This document shows positions 8,294-36,350 of a stretch of 36,350 nucleotides of DNA, in pieces. Each line of letters begins with the position of its first letter. The first letter of the stretch is position 1. The notes beneath the pieces were generated by a model, which saw only the letters and a program-made list of their open reading frames with translations, was not told where the DNA came from and searched no databases. This DNA is from a virus. The translations under genes were made by a program, and so were the position numbers. The stretch lies in UHGV virus genome UHGV-0207457. One strand, 5' to 3'.

Positions 8294-10198
8294 ATGAAAC
8301 TGATTTCTAATAAGGCAAAATTAAAAAAGATTCTCAGAAATATCACTGCTGCAATTCGCCCACCTAAAGCAATGAAACCTAGCGAGTGGGTAGAGGCTAA
8401 CGTAGTGGCTACCGATGGTGTTAAAGCCGGATCTCTAATTAAATTGCATCCCTTCCAACGTGGAATGATGGACGCGATCACCGAAGACCGTAGAAAAATT
8501 GTGCTAAAGTGCTCGGCACAGTTGGGTAAAACTCTTGTGCTAAACGGTATTATCTTTCACAGGATCGCCAGTAACCCTACTAATATCGGTGTTTTGCAAG
8601 CGAACGTTCGAGAATTGAACTCATGGATTGCGGGTAAGGTGAAGCCAGTATTAGAGGCAACCCCAGAATTAAAGGCGATGATCACCGACAAATCAGATCG
8701 CAATGCCGTTAACAACTCATCGATTATTCAGCTTCGTAACGGATCATTCATGTATTTCATGTCGCTGAACAGTCCATCACACTTGCGCGGTAAGACACTG
8801 CCTTTGATTATTCTGGATGAAGTTGATGCGGCTGATGAGTCAGACGAAGGGAACCCGATCCAGCTAGCGGAACAACGCGCAACCACTTTCGGTGATGATG
8901 CAAGGATCGTAATTGCTTCTACTCCAACTTCGCGGGATGGGGCGATAAACCAACAATGGGAACTCTCGGATAAAAGAAAATACCACGTCGTTTGCCAGCA
9001 TTGCGGACACAAACACGTAATGGAATGGAGTAGAGTATTCTTTGATTGGCATGTAATCAATGGTAAATCACTGCCGAATCCAGACACAGCCGTTTACCGT
9101 TGCCCGTCATGTGAAACTGATTGGTCAGAACCAGATCGCCTCCGTGCTGTTGCTCAGGGAGAATGGGTCGCCACCGAACCAAATGCGGAAGTAATCGGTT
9201 TTCATGCTAACCGCCTTATGTCTCCGTTTAGTTCTATCCGTGCGTGTGTGGTGGACTTTGCTGATAGCTACGCGAATATGTCACTGGCAACGTTCTATAA
9301 TGTGGTGCTCGGTGAAACCTTCGATGATCTTAACGAAGACCGCACAGCCGACGAACTGGAAACGCTGAAAACTGACATTAGCTTAGATAATATTCCTGAT
9401 GATGTTCTGGCTCTGGTAGGTGGAGTTGACCAGCAAAAAGACCGTCTGGAATCTACCTTGCTGGGTATCTCTCGTAAGGGGATATGCGTAGTTGATCACC
9501 GATCATTCTATGATGTGAACTGCGAACGCCACGAATCGCCAGCATATGACCAGCTTTATAACTTCCTGAAAGCGAAATTCTATACCCGATCCGGTGAACG
9601 AATCCCGATGCTATCTGCTTTCGTGGACTCATCGAACGGACGAGCTACAAACGTGATCTACCGTTTTTGCACTAGGTGGCAAAACCTATGCGCCATTAAA
9701 GGCGCAAGTAATGCTGATGCTCCAATCCTTCCGGCTAAGGACACAAGAACGGGTGGTTTTACCCTTAAAATTCTGGGCGTAAACAACCTTAAAACGATGA
9801 TCCGTGAAATGATTAACCGGAACTTGAGAGATGGCGATCCTCACACTGTCTTCCAGATTGGCGACGTTCCTGATGACTATTGCGAGCAATTGCTTTCTGA
9901 ACAGTTGAAACGGCAGGGTAATACCACACGTTGGGTAAAAGTTGGTCAGCAACGAAACGAGGCGCTCGACTGCCTGGCTTATTCCTATGCTGCTTCTCGC
10001 CATGTACTCAATAAAATGTCATGGGAAAAACTCGAAGCCATCAAAGATAGTTTGAACCGTGAACCAGAAGAATCCGTAGAAGCTCCTAAATCGCAATCTG
10101 ACGAGAAAATAGAAGAAACTAAGCCAATCACACGACCACAACGTCAAAACATCGCCAGACGCCCAAATAGAGGCCGTGGCTGGGTAACATCGTTCTAA
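8294..10198 (+). CDS. Terminase large subunit, lambda gpA-like (634 aa)
   Basis: Walker A-like SAQLGKT, Walker B ILDEVD, zinc-finger-like CQHCGH...CPSC; size and position ahead of the portal. Confidence 0.85.
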   Translation: MKLISNKAKLKKILRNITAAIRPPKAMKPSEWVEANVVATDGVKAGSLIKLHPFQRGMMDAITEDRRKIVLKCSAQLGKTLVLNGIIFHRIASNPTNIGVLQANVRELNSWIAGKVKPVLEATPELKAMITDKSDRNAVNNSSIIQLRNGSFMYFMSLNSPSHLRGKTLPLIILDEVDAADESDEGNPIQLAEQRATTFGDDARIVIASTPTSRDGAINQQWELSDKRKYHVVCQHCGHKHVMEWSRVFFDWHVINGKSLPNPDTAVYRCPSCETDWSEPDRLRAVAQGEWVATEPNAEVIGFHANRLMSPFSSIRACVVDFADSYANMSLATFYNVVLGETFDDLNEDRTADELETLKTDISLDNIPDDVLALVGGVDQQKDRLESTLLGISRKGICVVDHRSFYDVNCERHESPAYDQLYNFLKAKFYTRSGERIPMLSAFVDSSNGRATNVIYRFCTRWQNLCAIKGASNADAPILPAKDTRTGGFTLKILGVNNLKTMIREMINRNLRDGDPHTVFQIGDVPDDYCEQLLSEQLKRQGNTTRWVKVGQQRNEALDCLAYSYAASRHVLNKMSWEKLEAIKDSLNREPEESVEAPKSQSDEKIEETKPITRPQRQNIARRPNRGRGWVTSF

Positions 10199-10775: not shown

Positions 10776-12287
10776 ATGTTTAATCTTTTTCGACGCAATA
10801 AGGCGGTAGAAACTCCAGTTAAAACTAATCACCGCCAGCAACAACAAAAAATCTTTATCGACAAACAAGTAGAAAAATTCCAGAAAGATTTGTCTAAGCG
10901 TTCTTTGGGCTTAGTTGGTGATCGCATTGATGGATCGCTTCAACAAGATACTATCACAGGAACCTTCAATAAGGCTCTCAAATCGAATGGTAAGCGCCTT
11001 TATGACCAGGGTCGTACTCTGGCCTTAAACACTTCCGTAGGCAGTCGCTACACGCAATACATCACCGATATGGTGGTAGGTACTGGCCTAGATCCGAAGC
11101 CGTCAGTTGTTAAATCAAATGGAAAACTTGATAGCGCACTGAATAAGCAGATCGAGAATGCTTTCTGGAAGTGGGCGCAGAATGCTAAACGCTTCTCCCG
11201 CAATGGTCGTTTTAACTTCCGTGAACTGCTGGTAATGGCTGAACGTGAGCGCGTTATGGGTGGTGAGTGCTTCATCGTTTTAACCAAAGAAAACAATGAG
11301 TTAAATGTTTCTATCCTGTCTGCTGATAAGTGCGACTGGTCGCTAAACCGTGAAGTAAGCAAAGACCGTGCGATATATCAAGGTGTGGAGTATGACGTAG
11401 AGACGATGAAGCCCGTAGCATACTGGTTTCGTAAAATCAACCTACTGACTCAGACTTACACAGGTGATAACTATCGCGTAGATGCTTCGCAAGTATGCCA
11501 TTATTATCAACCACTTGCGGCTGAATCTCTGCGTGGTGTGACTGACTTCCTGCCAGTGATTAAGGATATCGCACATCAAGACGCATTCCGCGAAGCTGTA
11601 CTGGTCCAGAAACGAATTTCAGCTAGTAGCATGGCGTTCATCGAGCGTCCGAAAGATTCTGGTGACGATTTTGATACTGGTGAAGATGATGAACAATATC
11701 AAGCGCCGGAAGTTATTCACGATTTCGCGCCGGGTACTATTCAGGAATTGCCGGAAGGGGCAACGATCAAGAGTATTCAATCCACGCAAAGCGGCGATGA
11801 TTTCAATTCATTTAACGCTGGTATGTTCACTAGCATAGCAATGGGTCTTGGCGTGTTCAATCAGGGCTTAACTGGCGATACTAGCCAAATAAATTACAGC
11901 GCTGCACGCTACGGCGAATTACTTCAAAGAACGCGCGTTAAAGCACTGCAAAACAAATTAATTGAAACAGTGGTATTGCCAATTTTCGAAGCGTATCTGC
12001 GTCATTATTCCGCGCGTGGTATTGTTCCGATTCGTATTACTGCAATTCCGCATATTATCGATAACACTACTATTATTCGTCCGCGTTTTGAATCCGTCGA
12101 TCCATTTAAAGACGTAAGCGCCGAGATTGCTTTAATTGATAACGGACTTAAATCACGTACTGCCGTTATATTGGAACGTGGTGATGATCCTGAAAAAGTA
12201 TTCTCAGAGATTCAAGCCGAAAAAAGCGCACTAAATATTATCGTTGATGGCGAGGGTGAAGAAAAAAATTCCCCAGCCGATCCCTAA
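10776..12287 (+). CDS. Portal protein (503 aa), lambda gpB-like
   Basis: Size, acidic C-terminus and position between terminase and the protease-capsid gene; RBS GGGG. Confidence 0.75.
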   Translation: MFNLFRRNKAVETPVKTNHRQQQQKIFIDKQVEKFQKDLSKRSLGLVGDRIDGSLQQDTITGTFNKALKSNGKRLYDQGRTLALNTSVGSRYTQYITDMVVGTGLDPKPSVVKSNGKLDSALNKQIENAFWKWAQNAKRFSRNGRFNFRELLVMAERERVMGGECFIVLTKENNELNVSILSADKCDWSLNREVSKDRAIYQGVEYDVETMKPVAYWFRKINLLTQTYTGDNYRVDASQVCHYYQPLAAESLRGVTDFLPVIKDIAHQDAFREAVLVQKRISASSMAFIERPKDSGDDFDTGEDDEQYQAPEVIHDFAPGTIQELPEGATIKSIQSTQSGDDFNSFNAGMFTSIAMGLGVFNQGLTGDTSQINYSAARYGELLQRTRVKALQNKLIETVVLPIFEAYLRHYSARGIVPIRITAIPHIIDNTTIIRPRFESVDPFKDVSAEIALIDNGLKSRTAVILERGDDPEKVFSEIQAEKSALNIIVDGEGEEKNSPADP

Positions 12288-12333: not shown

Positions 12334-14340
12334 ATGCTTAAATTTCGCCGCGAACTTAACGGTTACGGTGGAGTTATTAACGAAGGGCATAACGATCAAT
12401 ACGAATTTGAAATTGCTTTCTCCAGTGAACAGCCTTATCAGCGCCAATTCTGGGATGAGCAAAATCAAGAAATGGTGGTATTAGATGAAATTCTGGTACA
12501 TACACCGGAAGCGGTTGATCTGTCTCGTCTGAATAATAACGCTCCGTTGCTGTTTAATCATAATTTCGATAATCATTTAGGTGTCGTTTGTAACGCTCGA
12601 ATCGATGCGGATAAAGTAGGCCGTGCGACCGTTAGATTCTCTAAGCATGGCACTTTGGCTAATGATATTCGTAATAAAGTCATTGAAGGTACGATGGAAA
12701 AAATTTCTGTCGGTTATGACATTAAAGAATATCACATCGATTATGCCAAAGGACAATTGATTGTTACTAAGTTTGTTCCTTTCGAATTAAGTTTTGTTAC
12801 GGTCCCGGCGGACGATTCGGTCGGTTTAAATCGCTCTCTAAATACTATCACAGTTAATTTGGAGGCTAAACGCGATATGACTAAAGAACAAATCGAAGAA
12901 ATCAAAGAAGAACAAGAACCCGCTCAGGTTGAAGAAACTCCGGTAGAAGAAAATAAAGAATCGGAAGTTGAAGAAACTCAAGAGCGCCAAGTTGAAGAGA
13001 ATAAAGAAGATGAAAATCTCGAAGACGGAAAAGACGCTGAACATCCTGAAAGTGTTGATGATGATAGTTCAACTGTTCGGGAAACAGAAGAAGTAAAAGA
13101 AGAACGTGAAGCCGTTCCGGTTGAAGAAGAAAAAACCGAGGAAGTGGCTGAACGTTCCGAAGAAGACGAATTAGAAATCCGCGAGATCGCGCGGGAACTA
13201 AATATTGACGACGAAGAATTAAAACGCGCATTGGCAATTAAAGACATGACGCCGGAAGCATTCCGCACTAAGGCACTAAATAACATTACCAATGCTCAAC
13301 GTATTAACGAACAAATTAATAAGGAACAAATCATGGAAAAAACTTTCGATCTTAATAACGTAATCCGCTCCCTGGTAGATGGCGACGTGCTCGGCGCTAA
13401 CGAAGCTGAATATTCCGCTATGGCTGCTGGTGCTGCAATGCAGCGTGGTCGTGCTGCTCGCGGTGGCTCTGTATTCGTTCCGGCTGCTGCTCTGCGTGCT
13501 GCTTCCGAAGGTAACACCAAAGCTACTCTGACCGCTGTTACTGATGAAAAACTGCTGACTGAATCCTACATCGAAATGCTGTTGCCTCAGAGTGTTTTAG
13601 GCCGCCTCGGTGTAACCGTTCTGTCTGGCCTGACTTCCCCGATCGCTGTTCCGAAAATGACCGCTTCCAGCGTCGAAGCCTTTGGTTTTGTTGACGAAAA
13701 TGGGGCTGCCCCCGAGTCACATGCGGAATTTTCGAACGTGAAAATGGCTCCTAAGACGTTCGCTGGTGGGAATCCGATCAGCAGAGCTAGCATAAAGCAA
13801 GTTCCCGGCATCGCTACCCTGATCACTGATCACATTAACAAATCTGTTCGGATCAAACTGGAACAACTGATTCTGTCTGACAAAGACAACGAGCGCGGTC
13901 CGGCTGGCCTGGTTAAGCAACTGGTAGACGCGGGTCGCGTTACTAAGAAAGCCGCTTTCTCTTACAAAGACTTCCTGAAAGAAATTGCAGCACTGACCGA
14001 CGCTGGCGTTCCTGCTCAGGCGATCAAGTTTGCGATGAGCGGTGCAACTGCTGCTGAACTGGAATCTACCCTGAAAGATAACGGCGTTTCCGGTTATATC
14101 ATCGAAAACGGCAAACTGGCTGGTTACGAAGTAGTTACTTCTGGTGTTATCCCGGCAGACCACATCGTTCTGGGCGCGTTTGACGGTATCACCATTGGTG
14201 AGTGGGGCGGTCTTGAACTGGATATGGACGACACTACCTACCGCGCACAGTCTGCTATCGTTCCGCGAATCTGGGTAGACCTGGATTATGTTGTTACTCA
14301 GCCGGAAGCTCTGAAAGTTCTTCACATCTCCGCTGAATGA
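12334..14340 (+). CDS. Fused prohead protease - scaffold-like acidic linker - HK97-fold major capsid protein (668 aa); ends in TGA
   Basis: N-terminal ~170 aa carry prohead-protease-like motifs (LLFNHNFDNHLG, ISVGY, ELSFVTVPAD); residues ~180-300 are Glu-rich; C-terminal ~340 aa is capsid-like. Confidence 0.85.
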   Translation: MLKFRRELNGYGGVINEGHNDQYEFEIAFSSEQPYQRQFWDEQNQEMVVLDEILVHTPEAVDLSRLNNNAPLLFNHNFDNHLGVVCNARIDADKVGRATVRFSKHGTLANDIRNKVIEGTMEKISVGYDIKEYHIDYAKGQLIVTKFVPFELSFVTVPADDSVGLNRSLNTITVNLEAKRDMTKEQIEEIKEEQEPAQVEETPVEENKESEVEETQERQVEENKEDENLEDGKDAEHPESVDDDSSTVRETEEVKEEREAVPVEEEKTEEVAERSEEDELEIREIARELNIDDEELKRALAIKDMTPEAFRTKALNNITNAQRINEQINKEQIMEKTFDLNNVIRSLVDGDVLGANEAEYSAMAAGAAMQRGRAARGGSVFVPAAALRAASEGNTKATLTAVTDEKLLTESYIEMLLPQSVLGRLGVTVLSGLTSPIAVPKMTASSVEAFGFVDENGAAPESHAEFSNVKMAPKTFAGGNPISRASIKQVPGIATLITDHINKSVRIKLEQLILSDKDNERGPAGLVKQLVDAGRVTKKAAFSYKDFLKEIAALTDAGVPAQAIKFAMSGATAAELESTLKDNGVSGYIIENGKLAGYEVVTSGVIPADHIVLGAFDGITIGEWGGLELDMDDTTYRAQSAIVPRIWVDLDYVVTQPEALKVLHISAE

Positions 14341-14469
14341 ACTCCTGTAGAACCATCTGAACCTTCCCCCGATTCGGGGGAAGAAAATCTGATTCCTAAA
14401 CCGGAAGAAGATTCCCAGACGGTTACGGCGAAAGCCACAGCTAAAAAACAGCGTAAAACTAAAGAATAA
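14341..14469 (+). other. In-frame 42-codon extension after the capsid gene TGA; candidate programmed readthrough tail
   Basis: No stop from 14341 to TAA at 14467-14469; encodes TPVEPSEPSPDSGEENLIPKPEEDSQTVTAKATAKKQRKTKE; 20-nt core 14422-14441 is identical to 20337-20356. Confidence 0.5.
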
Positions 14470-14474
14470 TAATT

Positions 14475-14502
14475 AGCCCTGCCTAACGGTGGGGCTTTTT
14501 TG
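14475..14502 (+). terminator. Intrinsic terminator after the capsid extension
   Basis: AGCCCTGCCTAACGGTGGGGCT followed by TTTTTT; near-identical copy at 20390-20418. Confidence 0.65.
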
Positions 14503-14822: not shown

Positions 14823-15228
14823 TAATATGCCTAGACTGAAAATCAAACGCGCCTTGCAAGATATTATCGAACAAGATTTAGGTCTGGCTTTAAACGTAGA
14901 ACAAACTCAGCAAGGCTTTAGTGATGACGTGGTTTGTTGGATTACTGGTATGAATGAGACTTACACTAGGGTCCGTGGTGGTAATGCAATGCAAGCTGAA
15001 TGCGTTATCGAAATGCAGTTATATTCTCAGATTCATGAAACGAAAATTCATGAGGGTATTTGCCAGATAATCCAGATTCAGCCGGATAACCCACGATTTA
15101 AAGATTTGGGCTTCTCTATTTCAGATATCACTCCAGTAGCCTCTAATACCGATTATGACGATGATTCTAGTGATGGGGGTATCGTTGGGACACTTAGCCT
15201 TAAATTTTCTTATCTAGCGCGTTTTTAA
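14806..15228 (+). CDS. Head-tail joining / tail completion protein (140 aa)
   Basis: ATG at 14806 after AGGGGG, overlapping the previous stop (track start 14758 is upstream in the same frame). Confidence 0.55.
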   Translation: MLAIVNNMPRLKIKRALQDIIEQDLGLALNVEQTQQGFSDDVVCWITGMNETYTRVRGGNAMQAECVIEMQLYSQIHETKIHEGICQIIQIQPDNPRFKDLGFSISDITPVASNTDYDDDSSDGGIVGTLSLKFSYLARF

Positions 15229-15237
15229 GGGGTAATA

Positions 15238-16071
15238 ATGAATATTACACAAGATAACTTAGATATTTTCACTGGATCACATGTTGAAGTGTCGATCTCT
15301 AACCAGATAGACAATCAGGTCGACTTTTTCGATCCTAGCTTTAGTTCTATGGAGAACATCGCAGCATTCCCTACGCTAACCGAATCCACAGAGATAGAAA
15401 CTCTGGAAGAGTACGATCAGGACGCTACGGGGAAACTTGCTGGTTATCGTAGACTGGAACCGACAACACTCACATTAAACCGTGTTCTTGACGATGAACA
15501 TCAAGCAATGTTGATGAAAGCGGTAGAGGATAAAACACCTTTACGCTTCCGTATGTTCTATGTTGTGAACTCTGGCTATAGTGCTGCTAACACTGGTTAC
15601 TATGTCATCTATGACGCTTATGTCACTAGTCACAAAACCCGTGGCGCAGATAACAAAGCTGTAACACTGGAATTTAAACTTGAACCAGATGGCGGGATTT
15701 TGGCAAGGGGTATAGCGACCGAGGGAAAAATTCTGCGACAAGGGGATTATGGCGTAGGTGCAGGTGTACATCCATTCACGGGTCCAATTGATAGTGATGC
15801 TTTAGCAGGAAACCGTTTCGTAACTTACAAGGGAACTGCTAGCGGTAATCCATACTCAGCCGACACATCATTAATTCACCTTCAAGCTAATGAGCATGGC
15901 GCATGGCAATTAACCTGTAATACTTCCGGTGCACCACGTTTACGTGTCCGAAATATTCAGGAAAACGGTCGCTCTGAATGGATCAAGGTATATTCCACCA
16001 ATGAGAAACCGACACCTAGCGAAATTGGCGCAGTGGCTAAGACTGATAGAATCGACTTCGGTGAGTATTAA
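15238..16071 (+). CDS. Structural protein (277 aa) whose C-terminus shares a KPTPxEIGA module with the tail fibre; possible fibre-attachment/collar protein
   Basis: RBS AGGGG; C-terminal YSTNEKPTPSEIGAVAK parallels the fibre's YHEGDKPTPAEIGAYTK, with ~80% nucleotide identity across the 27-nt core. Confidence 0.6.
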   Translation: MNITQDNLDIFTGSHVEVSISNQIDNQVDFFDPSFSSMENIAAFPTLTESTEIETLEEYDQDATGKLAGYRRLEPTTLTLNRVLDDEHQAMLMKAVEDKTPLRFRMFYVVNSGYSAANTGYYVIYDAYVTSHKTRGADNKAVTLEFKLEPDGGILARGIATEGKILRQGDYGVGAGVHPFTGPIDSDALAGNRFVTYKGTASGNPYSADTSLIHLQANEHGAWQLTCNTSGAPRLRVRNIQENGRSEWIKVYSTNEKPTPSEIGAVAKTDRIDFGEY

Positions 16072-16146: not shown

Positions 16147-19100
16147 ATGCAATCAATCCAATTTAAACGCACACAAACGGCTGGTAAAAAGCCGACGCCG
16201 GAACAATTATCACAGGGTGAGATCGCCTTACAACTGGCGGACCATGTGATTTACACCAAAGACAAAAATAATAACGTAGTCCAAATTAGTGTTTCTCCAG
16301 AAAAACACGCTGAACTTAACACTAAAGTAGACAATAACAAAACTAGCACTGACCGTGTTATTGCTTCCAACAAACAAGAGGCCGCTAATAATCTGGCTAG
16401 TGCTAAAGCTGAACTGAATCAGACTATTACCACTAAAGACACCGCAACCAATAAGCGCATTGATGCTACCAACACCACTGTTAGTAACTTAACCCAGACA
16501 GTTACGGCAAATAAAACCGATGCCGACACTAAGATCAATAACCTTACGGGGACCGTATCTGCGAATAAGACCGCAATTGAAAGAACCGTTGCCGCAAACA
16601 AATCTGATGCAGATAGCAAACATGCAGCTTTAACGAAAACGGTCACTGACAATAACACCGCGATTAACAACAAGGTTAATACCACTAACACCAACGTTAG
16701 CAACTTAACTAAAACTGTTACTGCAAATAAAACCGATGCAGATAACAAAATTTCTAGCTTAACTAGCACGGTTGCAGCTAACAAGACAGCGATCGAAAAG
16801 ACTGTTTCCGACAATAAGAAAGACGCGGATACTAAGATTACCAATCTTACTGGCACTGTTAACAGCAACCATACCGCAATTAACAACAAGGTAGACCAGA
16901 ATAAATCTTCTACTGATGCCGCAATTGCAGCCGCTAACAAACGAATTGATGGTATTGAAGGTAGCAATGATGCTCTTTACATCAAGAAGAATACCAATAC
17001 TAAGCATGGTGGGTATCTGTTAAGCAAGACAGCTAACTATTTGGAAGACCAGACAGCGAGAGATCTTAACTACTTTGGCGCTTTCCGTACCAATGGTCAA
17101 GATGGACTCATGGATCTAACTCTTAACGTTCCTCATTCTGCCGGTAAAGCGCACGGTCGCGGATTTACTTTCCGTTATGCGTCTGGTGGATCTCGTGTTG
17201 AAACCTATGGTTTTGATAGAGAAGGACAGAAGAACTTTAGCTATAAAATGTATCACGAAGGGGATAAACCGACTCCTGCTGAAATTGGCGCATATACCAA
17301 AGGCGAAATTGATAAGATGTTTATTAAAAATGTCACAATGTCTGTTCCTTCTGGTAGTGAATCCCGTGCTTATTTCAAGATTGCTACGGCTACGATCCCG
17401 CAAAATGGTCGTATGGTAATGCTTCGTATCTTCGGTGGTAACGGTTATAACGTTAACTCCTATGATCAGGTTGACTTTTTAGAAATTGTTATCCGTTCCG
17501 GTAACAATAACCCGAAAGGCGTTAGTATTGCTGCTTATCGTCGAAACTCTTTGAACGTTCATCAAGTATTTGCGGTTAATACTTCCGGTGATAACTACGA
17601 CATTTACGTTAACTACGGTCGTTATACTGATAACGTTATTGTCGAATATGGTAAGACTAGCGGTGTTTCACTGACTGTTCATGACACCCCAGCTATGACT
17701 AACGTTAAGCCGTCTACTGGTGTTACAGATGGACGTGTTATTACAATGTTCAACACCGAAAACAAAGCCGGAACATTGATGTTTGATAATAACGGACAGG
17801 GAACATATGATATTGTCAGTTTGAATAACGATTCAGGTACTGGAAAAAAATATCTTCGTAAATTCCGTAGTAAAGCCGCAGAAACAATCTGGCATGAAAC
17901 TGTTCAAGGTAACGTATATCGTTTAGCGACTGGCACTACCGATTCTAGCGAAGTTCTACGAATCACTGGTCGCACCATGTTTACTGGTAAAGGCGTATTG
18001 GATGCTGGACAAAACGTTCTTAGATTAGAACGTCCTAGTAACCAATCTAACTACATTGAATGGCAGGACCGCCGCAATGGTGCTGATGCTCGTCAAGGTT
18101 GGATCGGTTTTGGTAGTGCGGAAACAAATAACTTCATGTGGTATAGCGATCATGGGAAAAACTCATTTCAGCTAGAAGCTAACGGTCAATGTTCTATATC
18201 CACTGGTGCAAATAAACTTGTATATACCAATGGTGAATATTGCTCTGGCAACTCTAACGCATATCGTATGGCATTTGGTAACTATGGCGCATTCTGGCGT
18301 AATGATGGTGGTAAAGTTTATCTTCTGTCGACGGATGAAAACGATAAGTTGGGCGGCTGGAATACTTATCGACCATTCATTTACGATCTTACTTCCGGTA
18401 ACGTTCAATTAGGCGGTGATGGTAACGAAGATGCATTAACGTTAGAACGTGCTTCTCGTGCCGCTCGTTTTAGCAATAACGTTTACATTAAGAAAGGTTT
18501 TTTGACTTTTGATGCTGGTCGGTCTGGTTCTCGCGATTATATTCGATTTAATCATTGGGGCGATAGTAATAACGCCCGTGATAACGTCTTGTACATAGAA
18601 GATAGTCAAGGCCGACATTTTAGCACAGAGCGTGCGATGGGTACTGGTGCTCTTAAGGCAAACTTCTTAGGCGATCTTGAAGTCGGTGGTAAGTTTACCT
18701 GGGGTAAAAATACAGCTACATCCAGCTTTAATATTCGTGCATGGGGTAATGATTCTCGTAAGCAAGTATTAGAATGCGCGGATGAAAGTGGTTGGCATTG
18801 GTATACCCAACGTGCTGGCGGTCCGGGCACAAATGAAATTAACTTTAGTGTTAATGGCAGTATTCACTCACAAGGGATTGCAACTTCCGGTAATATTAAA
18901 ATAACTGGACCTGATATTGAATTTCGTCGCACTGGCAATAAGCATATCTGGTTTAGAGATCCGAACGGCTTAGAATTAGGTTTGATGTACTGCGATGATG
19001 CTGGTGTTATCCGCTTCCGTGGTCAGAAACAAGGTCAAACTTGGAAACTTGCTGATAAAATGATTCATCTTGAGGCGGGGACTGTCGGCGGGTCTGATAA

Positions 19101-19731
19101 AGGTTTGATTCGTGGTAATGTTGCTGGTGGTAGCTGGGCTAGCTGGCGTGATCGTTCTGCCGGAATCCTCGTAGACTGTCCGAACTCAACCGATTCCGCT
19201 CATAACATCTGGAAAGCTACTCATTGGGGTAAATATCACATTGCAGCAATGGGTGTGCACGTTCCTAGCGGTACTATCACCAATGCTTTAGCTCGCCTAA
19301 ACGTTCACGACGCCAACTTTGACTTTAACGCTGCGGGTGATTTTAGCGCAGGTCGTAACGGTAGCTTTAATGATGTTTACATTCGCTCTGACTCCCGTTT
19401 GAAGATTAACAAGGAAGAATTACAGGACGGCGCATTAGAGAAAGTAAACTCCCTGAAAGTCTACACCTACGATAAAGTTAAATCTCTTAAAGACCGTAGT
19501 GTGATTAAACGCGAAGTAGGTATTATTGCTCAGGATCTGGAAGAAGTATTGCCGGAAGCAGTAGGTATTCAATCCACCGAAGATCCAGAACAACCGGAAG
19601 CAATTAAGACTATTTCTAACTCTGCTGTTAATGCCTTGATTATTAAAGCTATTCAGGAAATGGACGCCAAATATCAAGCTAAGATTGAAGCATTGACTAA
19701 AGAGATTGCCGAACTCAAAGCAACTAAATAA
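16147..19731 (+). CDS. Side (long) tail fibre, T4 gp37 / lambda Stf-like, with tandem shaft repeats and C-terminal intramolecular chaperone (peptidase S74-type) domain (1194 aa)
   Basis: N-terminus MQSIQFKRTQTAGKKPTPEQLSQGEIALQL resembles T4 gp37; YLRKFRSKAAETIWHETV resembles gp37 YLRKVRAKSGGTIYHEIV; two ~72-aa tandem repeats (~16480-16910); C-terminal SDSRLKINKEE...AIQEMDAKYQAKIEALTKEIAELK is chaperone-like. Confidence 0.85.
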   Translation: MQSIQFKRTQTAGKKPTPEQLSQGEIALQLADHVIYTKDKNNNVVQISVSPEKHAELNTKVDNNKTSTDRVIASNKQEAANNLASAKAELNQTITTKDTATNKRIDATNTTVSNLTQTVTANKTDADTKINNLTGTVSANKTAIERTVAANKSDADSKHAALTKTVTDNNTAINNKVNTTNTNVSNLTKTVTANKTDADNKISSLTSTVAANKTAIEKTVSDNKKDADTKITNLTGTVNSNHTAINNKVDQNKSSTDAAIAAANKRIDGIEGSNDALYIKKNTNTKHGGYLLSKTANYLEDQTARDLNYFGAFRTNGQDGLMDLTLNVPHSAGKAHGRGFTFRYASGGSRVETYGFDREGQKNFSYKMYHEGDKPTPAEIGAYTKGEIDKMFIKNVTMSVPSGSESRAYFKIATATIPQNGRMVMLRIFGGNGYNVNSYDQVDFLEIVIRSGNNNPKGVSIAAYRRNSLNVHQVFAVNTSGDNYDIYVNYGRYTDNVIVEYGKTSGVSLTVHDTPAMTNVKPSTGVTDGRVITMFNTENKAGTLMFDNNGQGTYDIVSLNNDSGTGKKYLRKFRSKAAETIWHETVQGNVYRLATGTTDSSEVLRITGRTMFTGKGVLDAGQNVLRLERPSNQSNYIEWQDRRNGADARQGWIGFGSAETNNFMWYSDHGKNSFQLEANGQCSISTGANKLVYTNGEYCSGNSNAYRMAFGNYGAFWRNDGGKVYLLSTDENDKLGGWNTYRPFIYDLTSGNVQLGGDGNEDALTLERASRAARFSNNVYIKKGFLTFDAGRSGSRDYIRFNHWGDSNNARDNVLYIEDSQGRHFSTERAMGTGALKANFLGDLEVGGKFTWGKNTATSSFNIRAWGNDSRKQVLECADESGWHWYTQRAGGPGTNEINFSVNGSIHSQGIATSGNIKITGPDIEFRRTGNKHIWFRDPNGLELGLMYCDDAGVIRFRGQKQGQTWKLADKMIHLEAGTVGGSDKGLIRGNVAGGSWASWRDRSAGILVDCPNSTDSAHNIWKATHWGKYHIAAMGVHVPSGTITNALARLNVHDANFDFNAAGDFSAGRNGSFNDVYIRSDSRLKINKEELQDGALEKVNSLKVYTYDKVKSLKDRSVIKREVGIIAQDLEEVLPEAVGIQSTEDPEQPEAIKTISNSAVNALIIKAIQEMDAKYQAKIEALTKEIAELKATK

Positions 19732-19787: not shown

Positions 19788-20258
19788 ATGTCTCAATTTA
19801 ATGATATTTTTACTGGTGGTCTGGTAAGTCTGTTCTATCACGCTGATACCACTAACACCGCTCTCGATCACTCCGGTTACGAAGAAATTAAAGAGTGCGC
19901 TGGCTTCCCTGAAACTGCTATCGAGCGCGGTACTGTAGAAGTTAAATCCTTCTCTTCTCAGTACAACCGTAAGCTGGTAGGTAAACTGAATGTTCCTGAT
20001 CTGACTCTTACGGTGAATTACATCCCCGGGGATAGTGTCCATGAGAAGCTCATAAAGGCTGCCGAAGACGGTACTCGAATCCAGATTAAAGTAGAGTATT
20101 ACGTATCAGCGGATAAGCAGACTGGTATTCGCACCGCTTTCAACGGCTTTATTTCTAAAGTTGCTATGAACGGTGGCGATGAAGAAGTTGTAACCAAAGA
20201 GTTTACCTTCGCGGTGGACGGAAAGCCGATCAAACAGGAAATCTTCACTGCCGGATGA
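19788..20258 (+). CDS. Major tail (tube) protein, lambda gpV N-domain-like (156 aa); ends in TGA
   Basis: DLTLTVNYIPGDSVHEKLIKAAEDGTRIQIK parallels lambda gpV [33 protein letters not shown]; placed ahead of the G/T chaperones and tape measure. Confidence 0.65.
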   Translation: MSQFNDIFTGGLVSLFYHADTTNTALDHSGYEEIKECAGFPETAIERGTVEVKSFSSQYNRKLVGKLNVPDLTLTVNYIPGDSVHEKLIKAAEDGTRIQIKVEYYVSADKQTGIRTAFNGFISKVAMNGGDEEVVTKEFTFAVDGKPIKQEIFTAG

Positions 20259-20384
20259 ACTAACGAAGAACTTCCTTTAATAGAACCGGAACCACTACCG
20301 GAACATGAAGCGGTGGTGATTCCAGAAGTAGAAGAAGTTACGGCGAAAGCCACAGCAAAACGAGGCCGCAAGGCTAAGAATTAA
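20259..20384 (+). other. In-frame 41-codon extension after the tube gene TGA; candidate programmed readthrough tail
   Basis: No stop from 20259 to TAA at 20382-20384; encodes TNEELPLIEPEPLPEHEAVVIPEVEEVTAKATAKRGRKAKN; shares the 20-nt core and terminator with the capsid extension. Confidence 0.5.
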
Positions 20385-20389
20385 TTTTA

Positions 20390-20418
20390 AGCCCTGCCTT
20401 AATGGTGGGGCTTTTTTA
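20390..20418 (+). terminator. Intrinsic terminator after the tube extension
   Basis: AGCCCTGCCTTAATGGTGGGGCT followed by TTTTTT. Confidence 0.65.
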
Positions 20419-20432
20419 TTGGAGTTATCAAA

Positions 20433-20939
20433 ATGGCAAATGTCGTTAAAGTTCCTGGCTGGATCGGGTCATCTGCTGTATCGGTGACGGGTAAGCGATG
20501 GATGAAAGAAGCACTAACAGCTTTAAAAGTTCCGGCTCCGCGTAATATGTCGGCAATGGCTGGTCGTGGTATGGATACGGTTGTAGCTACTGCTGCATGG
20601 TCTACTTCATTGGGTAATAACTGGGGTGTAACTGCTTCAAACTATCCGGTAACTGACATGCGCGGTAAAGGGTCAATGGAGAACCCCGAAAACGTGGGCG
20701 TAGGGCGTCTGATTGGCGTTATCGTTGGTCAATTCAATGGCGGTACTCCTACTATGGCTGTATATCTCCAGAACGGTAGAGCGGGGAATATAACCGTTAA
20801 TTTGGGTGGTGCTACTGTCACTGTTCCTTATAACAGTATGCAAAGTGGTTTTCATTACTATTGGTTAAGCAATCCTCCGGCTGCTTTCCTCAATAACATT
20901 AAGAAGACTGGCACTAAGCAGACTTTGAAAATCTCTTAA
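20433..20939 (+). CDS. Hypothetical tail-associated protein (168 aa)
   Basis: RBS GGAG; Gly/Ala/Thr-rich; between the tube gene and the chaperone genes. Confidence 0.55.
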   Translation: MANVVKVPGWIGSSAVSVTGKRWMKEALTALKVPAPRNMSAMAGRGMDTVVATAAWSTSLGNNWGVTASNYPVTDMRGKGSMENPENVGVGRLIGVIVGQFNGGTPTMAVYLQNGRAGNITVNLGGATVTVPYNSMQSGFHYYWLSNPPAAFLNNIKKTGTKQTLKIS

Positions 20940-20981: not shown

Positions 20982-21290
20982 ATGAATATTAATGAAATGC
21001 TGAAAGCTCTTTCTCCGAAACGCGAATCTCTGACCATCGGTGGATTCACTTTCTATGCTCGCCCTATGTCAGTAAAAGAATTTAACGAACATGTTTTCAA
21101 TACCGATAAAGATGACCGTGATGAACGTTCGATTCTTCGTTGTATTGAAGATGAAGACGGTAAACCGGTATTTGAATCTATGGAACAAGTTAAGGCACTG
21201 TATACTAACGTCCGCAGTGAATTAATCGGTTTGGTTGCTCAAGCATCATTGATGCAAGATCCGGCGGTAATTGAAAACGAGGTAAAGTAA
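20982..21290 (+). CDS. Tail assembly chaperone, gpG-like (102 aa)
   Basis: RBS GAGGA; small acidic protein directly upstream of the tape measure with a downstream overlapping -1 frame ORF. Confidence 0.6.
   Translation: MNINEMLKALSPKRESLTIGGFTFYARPMSVKEFNEHVFNTDKDDRDERSILRCIEDEDGKPVFESMEQVKALYTNVRSELIGLVAQASLMQDPAVIENEVK
21282..21290 (+). other. Candidate -1 frameshift site GTA-AAG-TAA at the stop codon (tRNA-Lys AAG to AAA slip) giving a G-T fusion
   Basis: The -1 frame opens at 21275 and runs to 21661; its overlap with the G frame is only 16 nt and contains A-AAG immediately before TAA. Confidence 0.35.
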
Positions 21291-21319: not shown

Positions 21320-21661
21320 ATGATGAGATCGGGGCTTAGTAAAGATGAAATGGATAATATGCCAATCACTCTGTTTTGGAAATTATACATTTTCGACACC
21401 TACTTAGAACCACAAAGCCCCGCGTTTCATGATATGCAGAATGCGATGTTGCAATATTCCATGTATATGACGTCGCAAGGAATGACTCGAGAAACTGCAC
21501 GCAAACTCAAGCCTAGCCAATTCCAATTAATTAGAGAAGAAAAACTCTTTAAAACTAAAGAAGAACTGGAAGAACTTGCACGCAAGAAAGAAGAAGAACG
21601 TAAAGCGGCAATGCTGAACATGTTTGATACATCTTTGCTTGAGAAACTCAGAAGCGGTTAA
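21320..21661 (+). CDS. Tail assembly chaperone T-frame segment (113 aa from first ATG); probably made mainly as a G-T fusion
   Basis: In the -1 frame relative to the G gene; ends just before the tape measure start. Confidence 0.5.
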   Translation: MMRSGLSKDEMDNMPITLFWKLYIFDTYLEPQSPAFHDMQNAMLQYSMYMTSQGMTRETARKLKPSQFQLIREEKLFKTKEELEELARKKEEERKAAMLNMFDTSLLEKLRSG

Positions 21662-35569: not shown

Positions 35570-36350
35570 ATGAAAAAATACCAGCAGCTTGCAGAACAAT
35601 TACGCGAGCAGATTGCGTCGGGTATCTGGCAACCCGGCGATCGTTTGCCTTCGTTGCGTGACCAGGTGGCGCTTTCAGGCATGAGCTTTATGACTGTCAG
35701 CCATGCCTATCAGTTGCTCGAAAGTCAGGGATATATTATCGCACGACCGCAGTCGGGTTATTACGTTGCGCCACAGGCAATAAAAATGCCGAAAGCGCCA
35801 GTCATTCCAGTCACTCGAGATGAAGCAGTCGATATCAACACTTATATTTTTGATATGTTGCAGGCCAGTCGCGATCCGTCGGTCGTTCCGTTTGCCTCGG
35901 CCTTTCCCGACCCGCGACTTTTCCCCCTCCAACAACTAAACCGCTCGCTGGCGCAGGTAAGCAAAACCGCCACGGCGATGAGCGTGATTGAAAACTTACC
36001 GCCAGGAAACGCAGAACTGCGTCAGGCTATTGCTCGTCGCTATGCCTTACAGGGCATCACCATTTCTCCTGATGAAATTGTCATTACTGCCGGGGCGTTA
36101 GAGGCATTAAACCTCAGTTTGCAAGCGGTAACTGAACCGGGCGATTGGGTGATAGTAGAGAATCCTTGTTTCTATGGCGCGTTGCAGGCGCTGGAACGGC
36201 TACGGCTGAAAGCGTTATCGGTGGCGACGGATGTTAAAGAAGGGATAGATCTTCAGGCGTTGGAACTGGCGTTGCAGGAGTATCCGGTGAAAGCGTGCTG
36301 GCTGATGACTAATAGCCAGAATCCACTCGGATTTACCTTAACGCCGCAAA
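35570..36350 (+). CDS. yjiR: Host MocR/GntR-family regulator (N-terminal HTH plus start of the aminotransferase-like domain), YjiR-like; runs off the right edge
   Basis: ATG at 35570; MKKYQQLAEQLREQIASGIWQPGDRLPSLRDQVALSGMSFMTVSHAYQLLESQGYIIARPQSGYYVA is a typical MocR N-terminus and matches my recollection of E. coli YjiR; GC content is clearly higher than the prophage. Confidence 0.6.
   Translation, partial: MKKYQQLAEQLREQIASGIWQPGDRLPSLRDQVALSGMSFMTVSHAYQLLESQGYIIARPQSGYYVAPQAIKMPKAPVIPVTRDEAVDINTYIFDMLQASRDPSVVPFASAFPDPRLFPLQQLNRSLAQVSKTATAMSVIENLPPGNAELRQAIARRYALQGITISPDEIVITAGALEALNLSLQAVTEPGDWVIVENPCFYGALQALERLRLKALSVATDVKEGIDLQALELALQEYPVKACWLMTNSQNPLGFTLTPQ

Follow-up and report, generated by a model that had tools for sequence, protein, structure and literature searches.

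Paired UGA cassettes behind the capsid and tail tube genes of an enterobacterial prophage are candidates for stop-codon readthrough

The virus genome UHGV-0207457, a stretch of 36,350 nucleotides that we call the window, has a G+C content of about 42% and is a prophage; 54 of 5426 complete Escherichia coli genomes (~1%) have one of this kind. Two of its genes, one for a fused protease, scaffold and major capsid protein and the other for the major tail tube protein, end in TGA followed by A. In both, the reading frame runs on past the stop through a short, charged extension. An earlier note on this DNA had pointed to the first of these sites and proposed that the stop codon of the capsid gene is subject to programmed readthrough. 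Here we describe both sites, compare them with their relatives in E. coli and other genera and weigh the explanations they invite. The comparison points to selected readthrough of UGA as the likely one.

The capsid gene lies 3' of the portal gene in the late operon (Table 1). Its single open reading frame (ORF) carries both Peptidase_S78 and Phage_capsid domains, the arrangement of an HK97-type capsid protein with a fused protease. An identical E. coli protein carries the name phage major capsid protein, and the capsid domain matches in sequence the major capsid protein of PDB entry 8GTA, a T=7 capsid structure with seven chains per asymmetric unit. The G+C content of the capsid domain (13300-14350) is 50-53%, against 37-42% in the flanking genes; a mosaic origin could account for this, or else high expression with the codon bias that goes with it. 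The delta-like scaffold segment (12870-13250, residues ~180-300) is extremely acidic and Glu-rich, with an AT skew of up to +0.46.

What follows the capsid stop agrees with the earlier description: the +4 base is A, and the frame stays open for 42 codons before a TAA and a terminator. The encoded peptide was described there as a Pro/Glu-rich spacer with a Lys/Arg-rich tip, and an acidic, proline-rich linker followed by a basic tail is indeed what we find in every allele. In the window the linker has a net charge of -7 and the tail, TAKATAKKQRKTKE, a net charge of +5. The hairpin that closes the region folds with -15.9 kcal/mol (z score -3.3).

The capsid TGA is not unique in the window, as the earlier note had supposed, because the tube gene also ends in TGA ACT, followed by a homologous extension. 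The tube gene is placed upstream of the tail assembly chaperones and the tape measure, and an AlphaFold model of its product (predicted local distance difference test score 72.8) has as its best PDB matches the lambda gpV tail tube (8K36 and 7T4F, template-modeling score ~0.6); gene order and predicted fold are thus those of a lambda-like tube protein. Its terminator-like hairpin (-17.4 kcal/mol, z -3.6) resembles the one behind the capsid gene. Both are G+C-rich hairpins followed by a T-run, and together they give the two best terminator matches between 12 and 22 kb (14475-14496 and 20389-20413). The two extensions share an identical 20-nucleotide core, GTTACGGCGAAAGCCACAGC, that occurs in the window only at 14422-14441 and 20337-20356. 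Judged by sequence, the capsid and tube regions are homologous copies of one cassette comprising TGA-A, extension, stop and terminator, each in frame behind one of the two most abundant virion genes, for head shell and tail tube. The earlier note had overlooked the tube cassette, as well as the covarying RNA stem 10 nucleotides downstream of the stop and the basic tails that some relatives encode directly, both described below. A tube-like paralogue is found at 15238-16071 (277 amino acids), upstream of the side-fibre gene; its N-terminal half matches phrog_158.

Table 1. Genes and cassette elements in the window
Feature	Position	Strand	Remarks
Large terminase	8294-10198		first of the three late-operon genes listed
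Lambda-type portal	10776-12287		late operon, between terminase and capsid fusion
Prohead protease, acidic scaffold and HK97-type major capsid protein fusion, 668 amino acids	12334-14340	+	ends TGA; Pfam Peptidase_S78 1.6e-10, Phage_capsid 2.7e-24
Candidate leaky stop TGA-A, capsid gene	TGA 14338-14340, +4 A at 14341	+	read from sequence (TGA ACT)
Capsid extension, 42 in-frame codons	14341-14466	+	TPVEPSEPSPDSGEENLIPKPEEDSQTVTAKATAKKQRKTKE; frame open up to TAATAA
RNA domain P1, capsid	14351-14424	+	stem 14351-14358 (AACCATCT) with 14417-14424 (AGACGGTT)
Hairpin P2, enclosed by capsid P1	14363-14383	+	
GNRA hairpin, capsid	14427-14436	+	GGC-GAAA-GCC; encodes part of TAKA
Tandem in-frame stops ending capsid extension	14467-14472	+	TAATAA, from sequence
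Intrinsic terminator-like hairpin and T-run, capsid cassette	14475-14502	+	hairpin to TTTTTT, match 14475-14496; 9 pairs, 6 G-C
Major tail tube protein, 156 amino acids	19788-20258	+	ends TGA; phrog_158 major tail protein 2.3e-21; weak Pfam lambda-like TTP match
Second candidate leaky stop TGA-A, tube gene	20256-20259	+	sequence TGA ACT
Tube extension, 41 in-frame codons	20259-20381	+	TNEELPLIEPEPLPEHEAVVIPEVEEVTAKATAKRGRKAKN; linker net -9, tail net +6
Tube RNA structure	20269-20375	+	P1 20269-20274 with 20334-20339; GNRA hairpin 20342-20351; third hairpin 20364-20375
Stops ending tube extension	TAA 20382-20384, second in-frame TAA 20388-20390	+	sequence
Intrinsic terminator-like hairpin and T-run, tube cassette	20389-20419	+	best terminator match in 12-22 kb, 10 pairs

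The choice of TGA is unusual for this phage. Among 36 ORFs tallied in the window, 33 end in TAA, often as TAATAA, and three in TGA. Besides the capsid and tube genes, the third is an ORF on the minus strand (35675-35935) whose translation is implausible and which looks non-coding; setting it aside, 33 of 35 credible genes use TAA. Relatives in other genera have similar habits. TAA ends 15 of 16 and 17 of 17 genes in Salmonella, the latter count coming from a relative without the cassette, and 13 of 15 in Providencia. The capsid stop is the sole TGA-A in the cassette-bearing Salmonella and Providencia relatives, and genes that lack the cassette end in TAA, mostly TAA-T. According to the literature, no bacterial termination signal is stronger than TAA-T, and in E. 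coli tRNA-Trp misreads UGA most readily when A follows it (PMC5289835). For a UGA reporter in K-12, readthrough was about 2% when measured at 37 C and about 4% at 25 C (PMC10570021). The phage group seems to reserve the leakiest possible stop for the cassette sites. The likeness to Qbeta seen by the earlier note extends to the hexamer: TGA ACT, found at both the capsid and tube stops, is also the coat stop of the RefSeq Qbeta record, annotated with ~5% readthrough. A search with ARAGORN for a phage-encoded suppressor tRNA returned only a doubtful 91-nucleotide tRNA-Glu(UUC) at 14993-15083 on the minus strand, inside a gene coding on the plus strand, and this call is probably a false positive.

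Is the frame behind the TGA kept as coding sequence? We collected 80 copies of the cassette (43 unique) from five complete genomes, two exact-pattern scans of IMG/VR and a metagenome scan. Copies were found by starting at the terminal TAATAA or at the conserved 3' motif and walking in frame, so that in every length variant the stop of the upstream gene shares its frame with the conserved 3' part. The TGA and the A at +4 are invariant in 80 of 80 copies, a readthrough-prone context throughout, though the codons around them vary: the last sense codon is GAA, GAG, GAC, GAT, GGA, GGT, TCT or GCT, and the second codon after the stop changes too. Tube cassettes alone account for 24 copies in IMG/VR, the window included, and six in metagenomes, all with TGA-A. 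One apparent sense-codon variant, a 'fused' tube protein of 198 amino acids (P0121) that has Trp where the stop would be, proved to have TGA in its DNA (L084, an 842-nucleotide ENA contig, k141_243218); it is a gene call under genetic code 4, and such calls can mimic sense-codon variants.

A single open frame is weak evidence, the chance that one random 42-codon frame is open being about 1 in 8. Across alleles the pattern is stronger. Frame 0 is free of stops in 38 of 38 unique alleles, and frames +1 and +2 carry one to seven stops each. In these 80 copies the capsid extension is 27, 28, 42, 43, 44 or 45 codons long and the tube extension 36, 39, 40 or 41; over all relatives the lengths are 25, 27, 28, 33, 36 and 39-45 codons, all in frame. 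The distance from the TGA to the GTTACGGCGAAAGCC motif takes at least seven values (12, 14, 19, 22, 25, 27 and 28 codons) and the part 3' of the motif at least four. This variation requires at least about nine indel events, all in multiples of three, which for non-coding sequence would have a probability of about (1/3)^9. Roughly 4.4% of all the single-nucleotide changes that could occur would put a stop in frame, and the alleles, with at least 99 substitution events between them, show no such change (P ~0.012).

What is conserved in the encoded peptide is its charge. The linker always carries a net charge of -3 to -9 and two to six prolines, the tail a net +5 to +7, and the tails (KKQRKTKE, KKERKTKAK, KKVGRPPKAK, KRGRKAKN and KRRKSK) are encoded by differing nucleotide sequences. 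Open frame, in-frame lengths and charge pattern together show the downstream ORF kept as coding among relatives. The 42-residue capsid extension has no Pfam match, and alleles of 25-45 residues are all of low-complexity acidic/proline and basic composition. Pooled ratios of nonsynonymous to synonymous variation (pN/pS) in the extensions are 0.42 (tube) and 0.73 (capsid), against 0.24 for the last 150 capsid codons and 0.25 for the next gene, with pS similar throughout. Such weak amino-acid constraint is as expected for a disordered linker; the ratio is unconvincing by itself, and it is confounded by the RNA pairing constraints described below.

The cassette is also found behind a second E. coli capsid allele whose protein is only 41% identical: the same TGA and extension are present, and homology breaks at the stop codon. 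In prophages with such an exchanged capsid allele (L002, L017 and L064), similarity to the window DNA picks up again at the stop codon (window 14334), with matches from query base 435 on. From these sequences, it seems that the cassette either moves together with the module downstream or serves as a recombination joint. No capsid homologue longer than 670 amino acids is among the best 120 matches listed, and the extensions are unannotated in all the annotated records inspected. Nor does the extension look like a separate small gene, having no conserved start codon or Shine-Dalgarno sequence. An ATG that overlaps the stop (GAATGA) opens an ORF of only seven codons and is absent from alleles with GAG, GAC or GGA before the TGA.

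A second layer of conservation lies in the RNA. In every allele class compared (long and short capsid, tube, Salmonella and Providencia), the first 13 nucleotides, UGA plus a 10-nucleotide spacer, are unpaired, and a closing stem that we call P1 begins at nucleotide 14. P1 ends just 5' of the GGC-GAAA-GCC hairpin, and a third hairpin usually comes next. In the window the capsid P1 domain folds more strongly than synonymous resamples (z -3.5). Compared with resamples that encode the same peptide in phage codon usage, capsid extensions give z scores of -2.6 to -4.5; the effect is smaller for tube extensions (-0.2 to -2.0). With a stem starting 10 nucleotides after a UGA in the A-site, ribosome footprints would place P1 at the leading edge of the ribosome.

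The pairing of P1 is maintained through differing sequences: AAUUGCCG/CGGUAGUU, AAUCGCCG/CGGUGAUU, AACUUC/GAAGUU, AACAACC/GGUUGUU and AGUUGCCGGAAG/CUUCCGGUAGCU. In a trimmed alignment of 25 unique sequences, 91.6% of P1 cells hold a standard pair, compared with 81.7% in 500 shuffles and 21-48% when the partners are slid by one to three columns. Six pairs have changed on both sides, against 3.6 in the shuffles, and none of the 500 shuffles reaches the observed values. The tube P1 contains two compensatory UA-to-AU pairs in the RNAalifold consensus, and the GNRA hairpin of one allele (L005) and of Providencia is GGA-GAAA-UCC, again a compensatory change. The cassette thus holds a stem at a fixed distance from the stop that is backed by compensatory substitutions, as in the extended 3' stem-loop type of readthrough signal. 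Some compensating changes are nonsynonymous and so contribute part of the raised pN/pS; in allele L019, for example, an L-to-S change that occurs together with VV-to-VI is better explained by RNA pairing. Rfam scans of the cassette at E up to 10 and up to 1 gave no relevant family, SECIS (selenocysteine insertion sequence) families included. The internal hairpin is not a terminator, as no T-run follows it on either strand.

The tube protein led us to syntenic prophages in other genera. The earlier note had asked about conservation of the downstream frame among related prophages. The frame is conserved, more strongly than expected, behind capsids only 41-49% identical and in three genera: E. 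coli/Shigella, Salmonella and Providencia. In Salmonella (L087/L088) the capsid is 49% identical and its gene ends TGA ACT, followed by 33 in-frame codons, TPVEPSEPLPDNGESETPSVTAKATKRGRKPKE; the tube gene has a short coded tail, ...GLMGRK, and TAA-T. In Providencia (L089) the capsid is 44% identical, with TGA ACT and 25 in-frame codons, TNEELPEEEPLPVATEKSTKRRKSK; the tube gene ends ...ASARK and TAA-T.

The exceptions are informative. Another Salmonella prophage (L095) has a capsid of the L087 type without the TGA: its gene encodes the basic tail directly (...KAASE-TRVKK) and ends in TAA-T, as does its tube gene (...VVGSRK). A metagenomic relative (L090) has a capsid ending ...KAKAPAGK and TAA and a tube protein ending ...VVTAKP and TAA-T. 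In Edwardsiella (L085) the tube gene directly encodes a tail, ...NVIPEAVAAKEK, that aligns by BLASTP with the E. coli extension ...AVVIPEVEEVTAK; the capsid gene ends in TGA-T with a stop after nine codons and looks degraded. Behind that TGA-T, at 2789-2932 of the Edwardsiella tarda prophage, lies an out-of-frame remnant, CGGTCGAAAGCC, that resembles the GNRA hairpin and is possibly a degraded cassette. An alternative E. coli tube allele (72% identical) ends in TAA TAA without an extension, in prophages that carry the cassette on the capsid gene. Since some relatives have it as part of a normally coded C-terminus, the basic tail belongs to the proteins of this phage group; the cassette itself is accessory, because it was lost or never gained in some lineages.

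Among isolated phages in the phage collection, the only relative is Escherichia phage DCP80, whose capsid (39-40% identical) ends in TAA without an extension; the same is true of the only relative in a scan of one genome per species, in Mangrovibacter (32%). The DCP80 record (L061, PQ671644, 5285-9286) is 141 kb long and labeled Straboviridae, with a head module (portal and protease-capsid fusion) 39-40% identical to that of the prophage; downstream of its capsid gene, which ends in TAA, lies a small separate ORF, MSLGAEALDAAPVKKSKSASG. Horizontal acquisition of the module is possible, as is a chimeric record.

Taken together, we think it likely that UGA is read by tRNA-Trp at both sites and that this readthrough is under selection as a source of minor, C-terminally extended capsid and tube subunits. 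The comparative data thus support the programmed readthrough that the earlier note proposed, and we infer it from sequence. The cassette would consist of the UGA and its following A, a 10-nucleotide spacer, an RNA domain (P1, the GNRA hairpin and usually a third hairpin), the in-frame extension and one or more strong TAA stops with a terminator. Most ribosomes would terminate at the UGA through RF2, giving the normal capsid or tube subunit. A small fraction, perhaps a few percent, would decode it with Trp-tRNA and read 25-45 codons on to the strong stops, so that the junctions would read VLHISAE-W-TPVEPSEPSPDSGEENLIPK in the capsid and QEIFTAG-W-TNEELPLIEPEPLPEHEAVVIPEVEEVTAK in the tube protein. 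The product would gain a flexible, acidic, proline-rich linker ending in a Lys/Arg-rich tail. On such numbers a head of ~415 subunits would contain around ten extended copies and a tube a handful.

Where would these tails point? The tube domain of lambda gpV comprises residues 1-156 and is followed by an outward-facing immunoglobulin (Ig)-like domain (PMC8718954). Our 156-residue tube protein ends where lambda gpV attaches that domain. In HK97-fold shells the C-termini generally point to the outside (T7 10B display and encapsulins are examples), and by analogy that of the present capsid is probably outward as well. From outward C-termini of the tube domain and the HK97-fold shell, the tethers would be external. 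The polycationic tip might then have an accessory role in adhesion to anionic surfaces (lipopolysaccharide, capsule, mucin or DNA). Of all the steps this one is the least secure; it is put forward by analogy, because Ig-like and fibronectin type III (FN3) domains added by frameshifting play such a role in other phages.

Several considerations weigh against readthrough. The alleles compared are related and may amount to five or six independent classes, which gives far fewer independent observations than the 80 copies. Some of the conservation belongs to the RNA, since some nonsynonymous changes are better explained by pairing, and the pN/pS of 0.73 in the capsid extension indicates weak amino-acid constraint beside the 0.24 at the 3' end of the capsid gene. 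The cassette is patchy: one E. coli tube allele and the tube genes of Salmonella, Providencia and Edwardsiella end in TAA without it, and the Edwardsiella capsid has TGA-T with a stop nine codons later. In K-12, which has the Thr246 variant of RF2, termination at UGA may be less efficient than in natural E. coli isolates, where the yield could therefore be well below 1%. Finally, we know of no downstream structure that stimulates non-selenocysteine readthrough on bacterial ribosomes.

This last point bears on the stem. P1 may tune the rate of readthrough. A bolder version, which we put forward tentatively and would not yet bet on, is that the stem 10 nucleotides after the UGA truly stimulates or tunes readthrough of the near-cognate, non-selenocysteine kind by bacterial ribosomes, and that a family of enterobacterial siphoviruses uses the cassette as a portable device to display a set number of polycationic tethers on head and tail.

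If RNA structure is so prominent, the region after the TGA might be nothing but a structured 3' untranslated element, an mRNA stabilizer, processing site or accessory to the terminator that follows the two late genes of highest expression, with the open frame a by-product and the peptide functionless. The strong folding of capsid extensions relative to synonymous resamples (z -2.6 to -4.5), the covariation of P1 and the GNRA hairpin with amino-acid changes that follow base pairing, the high pN/pS of the capsid extension and the strong terminators that end both cassettes would all suit such an element. We nevertheless consider it unlikely. An untranslated element need not start exactly at the upstream stop; it has no need for TGA-A in a phage that otherwise uses TAA, for one stop-free frame beside two closed ones or for length changes in multiples of three. 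Furthermore, the basic tail persists although the nucleotides that encode it are unrelated and a hairpin may be present or absent, and in relatives it is an ordinary coded C-terminus.

Readthrough could also be real and selected while the act of translating is what matters: ribosomes entering the extension would melt P1 and the GNRA hairpin and so modulate termination, late-gene expression or mRNA decay. The spacing invites the idea, with only two nucleotides (14473-14474) between TAATAA and the terminator stem at 14475 in the capsid cassette and four (20385-20388) between the TAA at 20382-20384 and the stem at 20389 in the tube cassette; the extension is structured throughout, and its amino-acid constraint is weak. 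Yet a few percent of ribosomes could alter termination only marginally, the charge pattern and the directly coded tails of relatives point to a role at the protein level and a three-fold variation in linker length fits a tether better than a spacing device. We regard this as quite improbable.

It is very improbable that the extension is a decaying relic, the remains of an ancestral fused C-terminal tail cut off by a nonsense mutation. Relatives with directly fused short tails do exist, and the Edwardsiella capsid region, with its TGA-T, its stop after nine codons and the out-of-frame CGGTCGAAAGCC, does look degraded. But a relic would require the same nonsense codon and +4 base to be frozen at two genes in three genera; about 15-20% nucleotide divergence and many indels have brought no frame-breaking change, and the RNA stem at a fixed spacing from the stop would be left unexplained.

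For selenocysteine, SelB recognizes a specific loop and a bulged U, as in fdhF. Decoding of the UGA as selenocysteine, with the downstream hairpin serving as a bacterial SECIS that recruits SelB, is scarcely credible: the geometry is compatible, as the apical loop of short alleles lies ~22-25 nucleotides from the UGA and bacterial SECIS elements, directly downstream of their UGA, have 16-37 nucleotides in between (PMC10778597), but Rfam families including SECIS give no match at E up to 10, the apical part differs among alleles (a GAAA tetraloop, a AAGAACCG loop or a multibranch domain) with no conserved SelB loop and a redox-inactive, disordered linker is an implausible site for selenocysteine.

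Two neighboring features of the tail module deserve mention. A T4-type long tail fibre, with a Gp34 trimerization domain and an S74 intramolecular chaperone, and a gp38-like adhesin (16147-19731 and 20433-20939) are inserted in a lambda/T5-like siphovirus tail module. The tail assembly chaperone pair (20982-21290 and 21320-21661, with Phage_TAC_13 and Phage_tail_T matches) has its second ORF in the -1 frame of the first, which ends ...GTA AAG TAA; the usual G/GT frameshift is probable there.

Selected readthrough of the two UGA codons would matter in several ways. Extended minor forms of major virion proteins are well known in tailed phages, but via frameshifting only, and readthrough of a coat-gene stop in E. 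coli is known only for Qbeta-like RNA phages. Here an in-frame UGA cassette would do the same in a double-stranded DNA prophage, duplicated on the capsid and tube genes and kept in three enterobacterial genera. Full-text searches of a literature collection that covers only a minority of subscription journals turned up neither a tailed phage with stop-codon readthrough described for its capsid or tail genes nor a structure-associated readthrough signal in bacteria or phages. For annotation, the extensions are missing from the records inspected; for the evolution of stop codons, a phage group that uses TAA nearly everywhere has apparently reserved TGA-A for readthrough; and for the mechanism of translation, the cassette offers a bacterial stop codon with a covarying stem a fixed distance away. 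In phage engineering it would serve as a natural low-copy system for C-terminal display on head and tail.

One close parallel is the A1 minor coat protein of Qbeta, a Qubevirus. In both cases an E. coli host translates a major coat gene that ends in a UGA, leaky in Qbeta and putatively so here, within the hexamer UGA ACU, the extension starts with a proline-rich linker and a minor fraction of coat subunits is, or here would be, extended. Qbeta, however, is a single-stranded RNA levivirus with an unrelated coat fold, and its A1 extension is an essential folded domain of ~200 amino acids. Here the virus is a tailed double-stranded DNA prophage, the extension of 25-45 amino acids is apparently disordered, two genes are involved and a covarying stem lies 10 nucleotides downstream.

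Frameshifting in Listeria phages A118, A500 and PSA, T3/T7 10B, Lactobacillus phage A2 and SPP1 (gp17.1*) gives the same outcome, a major virion protein and a minor C-terminally extended one (PMC5009743, PMC8718954). The Listeria phages recode both their coat and their major tail genes (PMC5009743), and the extended tube protein of SPP1 is dispensable (PMC8718954), which parallels the patchy presence of the cassette. These systems use a -1 or +1 shift and usually add an Ig-like or FN3 domain. In the prophage, by contrast, the extension lies in frame 0 behind a stop, frames +1 and +2 are closed and no slippery site is needed; what would be added is a short charged tether without a Pfam domain rather than a folded one.

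In its RNA, the cassette shares with bacterial SECIS elements a UGA followed by a hairpin at a fixed short distance within a continuing frame. It differs in having no conserved SelB-binding apical loop, the tops of its hairpins varying among alleles. A further likeness is found among eukaryotic viruses and in Drosophila, where readthrough signals consist of UGA, a spacer of 7-12 nucleotides and a closing stem around a variable, partly structured loop, with compensatory substitutions in the stem (PMC3159437). The cassette has a spacer of 10 nucleotides and a stem of 6-12 base pairs enclosing 4-60 nucleotides; the extended 3' stem-loop signals operate on eukaryotic ribosomes, with stems of 10-14 base pairs and loops of ~100-270 nucleotides. 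If P1 does stimulate readthrough, it would be the first prokaryotic counterpart of these eukaryotic viral signals.

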